Below, piece by piece: positions 13,403-16,831 of a DNA stretch of 32,000 nucleotides. The stretch covers positions 191,053 through 223,052 of the forward strand of contig DXJG01000002.1 of the NCBI GenBank assembly GCA_019056805.1, given 5' to 3'. This DNA is from Candidatus Baldrarchaeota archaeon (GTDB taxonomy: Archaea; Asgardarchaeota; Baldrarchaeia; Baldrarchaeales; DXJG01). A model generated the notes under the pieces. The model searched no databases. It was not told where the DNA came from and worked only from the letters and a program-made list of their open reading frames with translations. Within the stretch, counting starts at the first letter, position 1; every line of letters starts with the position of its first letter. A program made the translations under genes and the position numbers.

Positions 13403-15013
13403 TCATAAAACCTCTTCTGCTTCCACTAATCTATCAGAAATAACACGAACAACTTTCACTTTAAGTTTTTTACCTATCTTATCTCCAGCGTTTTTAACAA
13501 TAACAACAGGGCCTTCAGAAATCACATATCCTATACCATCACCTCTCCTTTTCTTAAAAGGTTCAGCTATAATAACATCGAGTACCTTGCCAATCAATTT
13601 CACTTTCCTTTCTCTATTAACCTTACTAACTTCTTTAACTATTTCCTTACTTAAAGGATCTCTTACAGCAGGTGGAGGAGTTTGAAAATCTCCAAAAGCA
13701 GAAAATGGTAATGGCTTGAACCTATAGATGGTTATTTTCTCAACGTCATAGGCATTCATTTTACGTATAACATTAATTGTTTCCTTAACGGTTTCTTTGG
13801 ACTGACCAGGTAATCCATGGATAAAATAAACATAAGGTCTTAAACCATATTTCTTTGCTATCTTTACAGCATTTAACGCTTCCATTGGAGTTGAAGGTCT
13901 ACCAAGAAGCCTAGAATGTGTCTCTGACCCGGTCTCGCAACCTATATGAATAGTACTACCAGGAAGATAACTGGAAATGATCTCTGCCACTTTTTCATCA
14001 AAAAGATTAGGCTTAACATTTTCAATAGTTACATATACTTCTCCATCAGCTACTTCGGGAATACTAGTAATATTTGAAAGTAATTGTTCAATAGCTCTAT
14101 AATTTGGAGGAGGGTTCCTAGGATCTGTTAAAGGTTCTGGAAAAACGATGTTATCTCGCTGATAATCCAGAAAATCCGGTGCACCAAGGACAATTCTCCT
14201 TACACCTTTATTAATAAGTGATTTAATCTCTCGAACAATATTTTTCCAATTTCTACTTCGAGGAGGACCAAAAAGAGAAGGAACTGAACAATAACCACAA
14301 CCCGGAGGTATATTTTGAGGACATGCGTATCTCTGCGCAAGTTTTCCACTAAAGCAAGTACCGCATTCCGAACATTTTCTACCATCTGGTAACATTATTC
14401 TTGTCCTGTAAAAATTTGAACATCCCCGAACACATTCAACATGAACCCTACAAGCCCAGAAAGCTGGATAATCTGCAACTTTCTCAACAGAGGGGAAGAA
14501 CTTATTTAATTTTTCCTTGGGAATAACAGGACGTAACGGATTAATATGTACATTTTTTCCATTAAACCAAGCTATGCCCTTAATATTCTTCAAAACATTC
14601 TCTTCAGGAATTTTTCCATCAATTAACCCGCTACGTAAAAGTTCCTCCAAGGTCTCTTCTCCTTCACCAATAACCGCAACAGAACATCTTGTCTTTAGGA
14701 TCAAGCTATAGGGATCCGAAGCAACCGGACCACCCACAACAACGGGGTAATCGTTGCCCTTAATTTTTCTCCATTTTGAAACAACCCTTACAATGCATGG
14801 TAAATCCATACTCATACCGCTTACAAGCAAAACATCAAAGTTATCAATAGCTGCTTTACTTCCAAGAAAATGTTCCGCCAAAAGTATTCTGCAATTTAAA
14901 TCACTTCGTTCCAAGACACCAGCAATGCTTCTCGGACCAGCACCTATAACATCCTTCGTAGATCTCCTATAATTTTTCCCAGCACCTAAAGCGTCAACAA
15001 TAAGCACGTCCAT
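13403..15013 (-). CDS. B12-binding-like/radical SAM enzyme with C-terminal TRAM domain
   Basis: N-terminal VVVGGP...AVIGEGE domain, RGC...GCGYC cluster motif, IGCETGS, YFIHGLPGQ and C-terminal TRAM-like IGKKLKVKVVRV. Likely ATG at 15013. Confidence 0.85.
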   Translation of the reverse strand: MDVLIVDALGAGKNYRRSTKDVIGAGPRSIAGVLERSDLNCRILLAEHFLGSKAAIDNFDVLLVSGMSMDLPCIVRVVSKWRKIKGNDYPVVVGGPVASDPYSLILKTRCSVAVIGEGEETLEELLRSGLIDGKIPEENVLKNIKGIAWFNGKNVHINPLRPVIPKEKLNKFFPSVEKVADYPAFWACRVHVECVRGCSNFYRTRIMLPDGRKCSECGTCFSGKLAQRYACPQNIPPGCGYCSVPSLFGPPRSRNWKNIVREIKSLINKGVRRIVLGAPDFLDYQRDNIVFPEPLTDPRNPPPNYRAIEQLLSNITSIPEVADGEVYVTIENVKPNLFDEKVAEIISSYLPGSTIHIGCETGSETHSRLLGRPSTPMEALNAVKIAKKYGLRPYVYFIHGLPGQSKETVKETINVIRKMNAYDVEKITIYRFKPLPFSAFGDFQTPPPAVRDPLSKEIVKEVSKVNRERKVKLIGKVLDVIIAEPFKKRRGDGIGYVISEGPVVIVKNAGDKIGKKLKVKVVRVISDRLVEAEEVL

Positions 15014-15190
15014 AAACGCCCTTCCCAGACTCTTAAAATTATTCAATTATACATAACCTATGTATTTAAAACATTAACCGAGAATTTTAGAGATAGTAGT
15101 ATTAATATATCAATGCAATGTAAATAATTTACCCATCAATAAAAATAAATATCAGATAAACTTACAAAGTCAAAAGAACAAATAAAAGAA

Positions 15191-15196
15191 AGGAGG
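15191..15196 (+). promoter_or_regulatory. Shine-Dalgarno AGGAGG upstream of sui1
   Basis: Perfect AGGAGG, 6 nt before GTT (15203) and 9 nt before ATA (15206). Confidence 0.75.
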
Positions 15197-15205
15197 CGCA
15201 AAGTT

Positions 15206-15517
15206 ATATCCTTAGAAAGATGTCCGATCTGTGGTTTACCAAAAGATATCTGCCAATGCGAAGCAATTGCAAAAGAAGAACAAAGAATAAAGATTAGAGT
15301 AGAAAAAAGAAAATGGGGGAGAGAAGTAACAATAATAGAAGGAATAGACGAAAAAGACATAGACCTCCACCAACTAGCTACAAAATTAAAACATAAACTT
15401 GCATGCGGAGGAACTGCTAAAAACGGAAAAATAGAACTTCAAGGAGACCACAGAGAAAGGGTAAAAACGCTACTTATCCAAGAAGGATTCTCAGAAGATA
15501 ACATAGACATAACCTAA
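15206..15517 (+). CDS. sui1: Translation initiation factor SUI1/aIF1, non-canonical start codon
   Basis: Hand translation gives (ATA)[45 protein letters not shown]...[23 protein letters not shown]. There is no in-frame ATG/GTG/TTG back to the TAA at 15146. Confidence 0.93.
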
Positions 15518-15631
15518 GGTCATCAACATTTATCCCTAAAATTTAGAGGCTTTCCAAAATTCAATACGAATTTATTATCCCAGCTTTTTATTTCTTAATA
15601 ACGGTTTAAAGCGTAAAAAAATATTGTAGTC

Positions 15632-16582
15632 TTAAGGTTCTATTTTTATCTCCAGCTGTTTTATGAGTTCTTTATATCTATTGCGTACCGTCACTTCTGT
15701 TACATGTGCTATTTCTGCTATTTCTCGTTGTGTTCGTCTTTCACCTTCAACAATGCCCGCAATATAAATCGCTGCCGCAGCTAATCCCGTAGGATCTTTG
15801 CCCGCAGTTAAACCGAGTTCTCGCGCCCGCCTTACAATATCAATAGCTAATCTCAGTACCTTGCCCGATAAATTTAATTCTTCGCCAAAACGCCCCACAA
15901 AAACAACCGGGTCACAACCCGGGACACTTACATCTAATCTACGCAGCAATAGTCGATAACAGCGACCTAATTCTTTTTTATTAACCCTGCTTTCCCTACT
16001 AATTTCGTCTAAGGTTCTAGGCACACCATGCAGTCTGCATGCTGCATATACGCTTGCAGCAATCATAGCTTCAATACTACGGCCCCTAATCATACCACCT
16101 ACAACTGCACCTCTATATAGTAGTGCGGCTTCGTCTTTGACTGGTTTAGGCAACTGGAGTTGTGATGTTAAACGATCAAGCTCAGCCAGTGCAAAAGTAA
16201 GATTGCGATCTATGCTGTTATGAACCCTCGTTCTGATTTGCCATTTTCTTAGTCTATAGATCTGTGCCCTTCTTATAGGACTTAATTTTCTTCCAAGCGC
16301 ATCTCTATCACGCCAATCTATTACTGTTGATAACCCCTTGTCGTGTATAGTTGGCGTCATGGGACCTCCAGTTCTTGCACGTTTCTCTCTTTCCTCTGCC
16401 GTAAACGCTCTCCATTCTGGTCCTGGATCTACCATATGTTCCCTAACAACTAAACCGCATTTTCCGCAGATTAATTCTCCACGAGTTGAATCCAAAAGTA
16501 GTTCTCGGCTACCACATTCTGGACACCAATCAATAGTCTCAAAAAGCTTTTTTGAAGTTTTTTCAGAATCTTTTTCAGCCAC
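15632..16582 (-). CDS. tfb: Transcription initiation factor IIB
   Basis: Zn ribbon CPECG...CGKCG, IDxGPEWRAF-like VDPGPEWRAF, two cyclin repeats and RTQREIAEIAHVTEVTVRNRYKEL. Likely GTG start at 16582 after GGAGGGA. Confidence 0.97.
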   Translation of the reverse strand: MAEKDSEKTSKKLFETIDWCPECGSRELLLDSTRGELICGKCGLVVREHMVDPGPEWRAFTAEEREKRARTGGPMTPTIHDKGLSTVIDWRDRDALGRKLSPIRRAQIYRLRKWQIRTRVHNSIDRNLTFALAELDRLTSQLQLPKPVKDEAALLYRGAVVGGMIRGRSIEAMIAASVYAACRLHGVPRTLDEISRESRVNKKELGRCYRLLLRRLDVSVPGCDPVVFVGRFGEELNLSGKVLRLAIDIVRRARELGLTAGKDPTGLAAAAIYIAGIVEGERRTQREIAEIAHVTEVTVRNRYKELIKQLEIKIEP

Positions 16583-16831
16583 AATATCCCTCCAAGCCGT
16601 GGACAAACAAATTAAAGAATTATGAAATATCCACACTTTATAGCTACATGATTAAGGAAATTTAACCGAAAATAATTCCTATGTTGTTTGTTATTTAAGG
16701 TTACCGATATATTTTTAAGCAAACTTCAAAATCGATTTAAATATTTTACGGATTGTGACAAAAAACTAAGTCAATCCACAAAATAGAAACCATTATTTAG
16801 CTAAATCAGAGTTTCACAAATTTTTGACCAA

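Follow-up and report, generated by a model that had tools for sequence, protein, structure and literature searches.

The aIF1 locus

The window that we analyzed is a 32,000-nucleotide stretch of contig C9 of G000, a 1.92-Mb metagenome-assembled genome (MAG) of a Candidatus Baldrarchaeota archaeon that is 91% complete and has a GC content of 35.5%. Its plus strand contains a stop-to-stop open reading frame (ORF) of 122 codons (15149–15517), that is, a frame closed upstream by an in-frame TAA (15146–15148) and terminated by a second TAA (15515–15517). The last 103 codons of this frame are a complete archaeal aIF1/SUI1 protein (coding sequence 15206–15517, 103 codons plus TAA). The SUI1 domain matches Pfam family PF01253 with an E-value of 1.1e-23 (83.9 bits vs a cut-off of 25.5), and the protein scores 158.6 bits with the NCBIfam model NF002096 (cut-off 98). 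The archaeal-type zinc knuckle, CxxC...CxC, is present at the N-terminus as C-P-I-C ... C-Q-C (15221–15259), and its four Cys residues are invariant across 18 Asgard homologues (alignment A1).

An earlier note on this DNA had pointed out that no ATG, GTG or TTG occurs in frame between the stop at 15146 and the conserved CPICGLP motif; a scan of the frame bears this out and extends it, that is, there are zero in-frame canonical start codons either before CPICGLP or anywhere else in 15149–15517. From the codon frequencies of the genome, the chance that 122 coding codons would lack a canonical start is ~0.006. A Shine-Dalgarno (SD) sequence, AGGAGG (15191–15196), is followed after a spacer of 6 nt by GTT (15203–15205) and after 9 nt by ATA (15206–15208), the proposed near-cognate start codon; the positions that the earlier note gave for these elements, and for the terminal TAA at 15515, are all correct. 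An ATG is also found out of frame at 15220–15222, 23 nt after the SD, where it is formed from AGA TGT and opens an ORF of 25 codons. We judge this ATG to be incidental from its sequence context, the same overlap of an A with TGT being present in homologues that start with ATG.

The upstream neighbor of aIF1 encodes a B12-binding radical-SAM protein (13403–15046) and the downstream neighbor encodes TFB (15632–16636). Both are on the minus strand, so aIF1 is probably monocistronic with its own A/T-rich promoter region. A candidate promoter, an A/T-rich TATA-like box, is located in the divergent intergenic region (the AATAAAAATAAATA region, 15139–15150, plus strand), and the AAAAATAAATA block in this putative promoter is kept within the genus (alignment A2). 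We found no regulatory RNA structure around the SD and the start (MFE −11.8 kcal/mol, z = 0.03). The gene order B12-binding radical SAM, aIF1, TFB is also kept in the other Baldrarchaeia family.

Integrity of the aIF1 gene

A gene without a canonical start could be explained trivially by an assembly error at 15206–15208 or by a gene in decay, so we compared the Logan contigs of four public sequencing runs with the window over positions 15000–15600. Those of X2 (depth 16), which may be the source run, match the window exactly over the entire interval. A contig of X5 (depth 63), which belongs to an independent study, is identical over 15000–15283, a segment that includes both the SD and the ATA; the base at 15206, which the earlier note had singled out for checking, is thereby verified in a contig assembled from another study's reads.

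The reading frame also behaves as a functional gene. The single SUI1 match in the entire 91%-complete genome is this one. Between the aIF1 genes of G000 and its congener G003 we count 34 nucleotide differences with dN 0.023 and dS 0.68 (dN/dS 0.033), values that point to strong purifying selection on a functional gene and not to a pseudogene. Also, 128 ORFs of 80 codons or more in G000 lack any canonical start, and among these aIF1 had by far the highest coding score; the remaining ones resemble antisense shadows. We conclude from these sequence comparisons that this is almost certainly a functional aIF1 gene. The explanation by error or decay, which could appeal to the several seemingly frameshifted genes in the MAG, is refuted for practical purposes by the identical contig of the independent run, by the ATA in seven further sequences from other samples, and by a dN/dS of 0.033 in the sole SUI1 gene of the genome; neither the pseudogene nor the assembly error that the earlier note had considered is thus what was found.

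The initiation codon

The Baldrarchaeia class is represented by five genomes in two families, and the aIF1 gene is present in four of these (G000, G001, G003 and G004). The nearest public aIF1 records are from Candidatus Baldrarchaeota MAGs (97% amino acid identity) and from a record labeled as Odinarchaeota (96%). Every Baldrarchaeia copy, including those in three JGI metagenome contigs, has the arrangement AAAGGAGGC, eight variable bases, and ATATC; AGGAGG, nine nucleotides and ATA are invariant in the four genomes and in the metagenome contigs (L123–L125), while the spacer and the upstream region diverge. Indeed, dS is saturated between the two Baldrarchaeia families, yet the ATA of aIF1 is kept in both. 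The comparison of upstream regions from related genomes that the earlier note had proposed therefore finds the SD and the ATA conserved, and the GTT at 15203 not; the codon before ATA is GTT, AAC or GGT, so GTT cannot be the start. In G004, from the second family, an in-frame TAA is located directly 5′ of AGGAGG; a start is then possible only 3′ of the SD, where the same ATA, again at a distance of 9 nt, comes first among the near-cognate codons.

The use of SD sequences elsewhere in the genome is consistent with this assignment. In G000, GGAGG is separated from a canonical start by 7, 8 or 9 nt in 83, 51 and 29 genes, respectively, and by 6 nt in 12; the 9-nt spacer of aIF1 falls inside this range. 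(The 3′ end of the 16S rRNA was not found in the G000 MAG with a simple pattern; the anti-SD was deduced from the SD usage of G000 and from the 16S end in a genome of family f7.)

Homologues provide a second line of evidence. The nearest homologues that start with ATG (74–78% identical) begin with MSEICP, and their Met1 aligns with the ATA at 15206, in agreement with the claim in the earlier note that ATA falls where Met occurs. The NCBI annotation of a sister MAG contains the G004-type protein (102 aa, MSEICPVCGLPQ...) with a CDS that starts from the same ATA; this is an automatic call. In a collection of 5.8 billion proteins we found no full-length aIF1 from the genus of the window; the only call there is 93 aa long and begins, in G003-type sequences, at a TTG within the CGLP motif. 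The window has TTA at this codon, which leaves gene finders with nothing to call. Any start 3′ of the zinc knuckle would destroy this motif.

On this comparative evidence, AUA at 15206 is very probably the initiation codon of aIF1. We considered translation from GTT at 15203, from an upstream ATA at 15182, from an out-of-frame ATG followed by a frameshift, or from a leaderless transcript. In favor of these, GTT is 6 nt from the SD and an ATG is available at 15220; however, the GTT is AAC or GGT in relatives and its spacer is uncommon in G000, the TAA directly before the SD in G004 leaves no usable upstream codon, and the ATG at 15220, besides its distance of 23 nt to the SD, shares bases with the first Cys codon and is equally present in ATG-starting homologues. 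We regard a start at any of these sites, or recoding, as very unlikely. The frames opened by two ATGs further upstream (near 15123 and 15128) end immediately in stops, and initiation at an upstream or out-of-frame ATG with a frameshift was rejected.

We observed no sign in the MAG of a special initiator tRNA that reads AUA (aragorn, which found only 18 tRNAs). An initiator-like tRNA(CAU) is encoded outside the window (G000 contig C1:6775-6882); it has a GGGG/CCCC anticodon stem and an intron that follows position 37, and it may be interrupted a second time close to its 5′ end (the aragorn model is poor).

Start-codon use in the genome

The GGAGG-led genes of G000 begin with ATG (109 genes), TTG (79) or GTG (32). 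TTG thus starts ~36% of them (79/220), an unusually high fraction that suggests a generally relaxed choice of start codon in this genome. Only three of ~223 GGAGG-led genes have a non-canonical start without a canonical alternative: aIF1 (ATA), a TruA-like pseudouridine synthase (ATA) and an OB-fold protein (ATT), so near-cognate starts are not unique to aIF1 in this organism.

The TruA-like gene (contig C9, outside the window; L113:201-1034) has GGAGG, 8 nt and ATA right after a stop; the first canonical start in its frame comes only at codon 128. Congeners have a GTG three codons upstream, so this ATA is probably recent; the gene looks like a case of recent start-codon loss, or of a local error. 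The OB-fold gene (PF01336; contig C17, outside the window; L114:204-812) has no canonical start for 47 codons and carries GGAGG, 8 nt and ATT directly after an in-frame stop. This ATT is kept in the congeners G001 and G003 and is not kept in G004. As judged from these three genes, near-cognate starts in the Baldrarchaeia lineage are rare and tolerated, and the case of aIF1 appears to be the oldest.

Recurrence of near-cognate starts in Asgard aIF1 genes

We then asked of each aIF1 homologue whether the segment from the in-frame stop on its 5′ side to the CxxC motif contains any canonical start. The searches were performed with a single aIF1 protein as the query, and the Asgard sampling includes Odin-, Jord-, Thor-, Heimdall- and Loki-type aIF1 sequences. 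Among the best 80 matches in the genome collection, the only loci without a canonical start are the Baldrarchaeia records and those of two Hadarchaeota MAGs (L067 and L086), in which GGAGGTG is followed by CTG; among the best 80 matches in metagenomes, they are the three Baldrarchaeia contigs. Most of the non-Asgard aIF1 homologues that we surveyed begin at ATG.

Within the Asgard archaea, several families depart from the canonical codons. In family f4 (L022 and L024), CTG is located 9 nt after GGAAGG. In family f7, with aIF1 of the GICPNCGLP type, the codon at this position of the alignment is either GTG or CTG, and never ATG in the sample; the CTG is found in six sampled genomes from five genera (L220, L224, L227, L229, L230 and L240), whose sister genera have GTG. 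The largest family sampled, f9 (L267–L292), has no canonical aIF1 start in 26 of 30 genomes and has instead a conserved ATT, located 9 nt after the SD-like GGTTGTGA, with an in-frame stop inside the SD-like motif. In family f27 (Loki type, L293–L305), the same codon before CCA AAA is ATG, TTG, GTG or ATA.

Two controls address whether these codons reflect the genome or the gene. The gene for aIF1A, located in the same 60-genome sample of f9, has a canonical start, mostly ATG, in all 30 of 30 loci. In 240 kb of a genome of family f7, 44 GGAG-led genes have canonical starts, and the only real gene with a CTG start is aIF1; the other CTG match in these 240 kb is the 3′ end of the 16S rRNA. To judge from these genomes, the near-cognate start is gene-specific to aIF1 and has had several origins, which involved three different codons (AUA, AUU and CUG). 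Because related genomes cannot be counted as independent cases, we estimate only a modest number of separate origins, roughly five to seven. We found no meaningful avoidance of internal in-frame ATG, GTG and TTG codons in those aIF1 genes that have a near-cognate start (means of 3.2 vs 3.8 per gene, a comparison that is confounded by GC content).

A possible feedback on start-codon stringency

Since the codon and its position are retained over such distances, we consider it probable, on the comparative evidence, that the weak start of aIF1 is maintained by selection. The best-supported reading of why this would be so, which we offer tentatively and with somewhat less than an even chance of being correct, is that aIF1 regulates its own synthesis through AUA. 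In such a circuit, the strong SD AGGAGG would place the 30S pre-initiation complex over AUA at 15206, the initiator Met-tRNA (anticodon CAU) would pair with AUA with a mismatch in the third position, and the resulting protein would start Met-Ser-Leu-Glu-Arg-Cys-Pro. [quoted passage not shown]

Biochemistry makes this reading more plausible. In the Sulfolobus solfataricus system, as summarized in PMC4705826 and PMC6237735, 30S complexes are formed on both AUG and AUU mRNAs without aIF1 and only on AUG mRNAs with aIF1. If aIF1 discriminates against AUU in vitro in this manner, use of a site with a strong SD and AUA should fall as aIF1 rises. In Pyrococcus abyssi, aIF1 stabilizes SD-bound mRNA while the complex stays dynamic, so that proofreading is possible (PMC6237735). 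The feedback reading also gains plausibility from the genomic survey, both because AUA, AUU and CUG starts on aIF1 are gene-specific and recurrent in Asgard lineages and because in the aIF1A control none of 30 loci lacks a canonical start. Counting against feedback, the TruA-like and OB-fold genes indicate that the lineage tolerates ATA and ATT starts without a fidelity role of the product; also, with most non-Asgard aIF1 genes starting at ATG, start-codon feedback would be no general property of aIF1. The frequent use of TTG in G000, the modest number of separate origins and the lack of a conserved RNA structure at the start of aIF1 weigh on the same side.

The tolerance of ATA and ATT starts on other genes supports another explanation, that is, that the weak AUA, offset by the strong SD, sets a low constitutive level of aIF1 that does not involve sensing of aIF1 itself. 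The conservation data are the same for this explanation as for feedback, the TruA-like and OB-fold proteins have no fidelity role and their genes also carry an SD-positioned ATA or ATT, and within the genus the OB-fold ATT is conserved. However, a fixed level leaves unexplained why such codons were gained repeatedly on aIF1 and never on aIF1A, and the discrimination of aIF1 against non-AUG codons in vitro (PMC4705826) makes some dependence on the level of aIF1 hard to avoid. We consider this explanation, one of the two main rivals of feedback, to be unlikely.

A neutral explanation, the other main rival, is clearly less probable, namely that changes from ATG to ATA or from GTG to CTG were fixed because a strong SD keeps expression adequate and that they then persisted unselected. 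Such losses occur and are tolerated, as the apparently recent loss of GTG from the TruA-like gene indicates, and the start codon of aIF1 does turn over in family f27 (ATG, TTG, GTG and ATA). Against this, ATG is only one A-to-G transition away from ATA, but the ATA has persisted in both of the dS-saturated Baldrarchaeia families, as has the ATT in the f9 genera sampled; also, the excess of aIF1 over aIF1A (26/30 vs 0/30) is not expected from drift. The recurrence on aIF1 specifically and the retention of ATA and ATT thus argue, at the level of sequence, against drift, but they do not separate a fixed low level of synthesis from feedback.

Relation to known systems

The start codon of the Escherichia coli infC gene, which encodes IF3, is AUU, and its translational autoregulation, also mentioned in PMC4705826, was shown experimentally. 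The likeness to the feedback reading is close: in both cases the gene of a factor that rejects non-canonical starts itself begins at a near-cognate AUN codon behind an SD, and the proposed logic is identical, that is, more of the factor would mean less initiation on its own mRNA. The codon of the f9 Asgard aIF1 genes is AUU, the same as that of E. coli infC. In contrast, IF3 is not related to aIF1 and has another fold, the codon in the window is AUA and not AUU, and feedback is what we infer for aIF1.

Asgard archaea are regarded as the group closest to eukaryotes, and the eukaryotic orthologue of aIF1 (PF01253), eIF1, offers the second comparison. eIF1 (SUI1) autoregulates via an AUG in a poor Kozak context (PMC6237735, citing Ivanov et al., 2010, PMC2964218); a uORF circuit of eIF5 is a related eukaryotic system (PMC3326321). 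The start sites on the mRNAs of eIF1 and aIF1 are alike in being suboptimal and conserved. They differ in that eukaryotes keep AUG and weaken its context, which is sensed in scanning, whereas the aIF1 genes of the Baldrarchaeia have a near-cognate codon placed by an SD, with no scanning, and the link to the level of aIF1 is one that we propose.

The aIF1 proteins characterized from S. solfataricus, P. abyssi and Methanocaldococcus jannaschii belong to the same family as that in the window and share its size (~102 aa), CxxC...CxC knuckle and SUI1 signature; to our knowledge, a non-canonical start has not been reported for their genes. In the literature that we searched, which includes reviews and primary work on the function of aIF1 and on the autoregulation of eIF1, eIF5 and infC, we found neither a non-canonical start nor autoregulation described for an archaeal aIF1 gene, which is no proof of novelty.

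If the feedback reading is correct, control of initiation fidelity via a weak start on the mRNA of the factor itself, as in bacteria (infC) and eukaryotes (eIF1), would extend to archaea; this would be a convergent or inherited principle across all domains, most widely seen in the archaea closest to eukaryotes. A stronger proposal is that feedback on e/aIF1 via a poor start was already present in Asgard archaea, as AUA, AUU or CUG behind an SD, and is evolutionarily continuous with the poor-context AUG of eIF1. We regard this continuity as doubtful; if true, the same regulatory principle would operate in three domains and the eukaryotic circuit would be older than scanning. A practical consequence concerns annotation: a near-cognate start causes aIF1 genes to be overlooked or cut short by standard gene callers, so in comparative genomics of Asgard archaea aIF1 may wrongly seem to be absent or N-terminally truncated.

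Other observations in the genome

Several genes of G000, namely an AlaX-like gene (in an A-run), HypF and GlyA, look frameshifted; these may be MAG errors or real. The gene for aIF5B, outside the window (G000 contig C10), contains a 33-nt insert with an in-frame TAG (L338:465-497) inside the G-domain motif GGI|TQHIGA. Together with its flanks, this insert can be folded as a helix, a 3-nt bulge, a 4-bp helix, a 3-nt bulge and a helix, that is, a bulge-helix-bulge-like (BHB-like) structure (−25.5 kcal/mol, z −3.0). All five Baldrarchaeia genomes have an insert at this position (30 nt long in G004), the stem showing compensatory substitutions, and its removal restores the aIF5B frame; by these features of its sequence, the insert is a candidate BHB intron in an mRNA.
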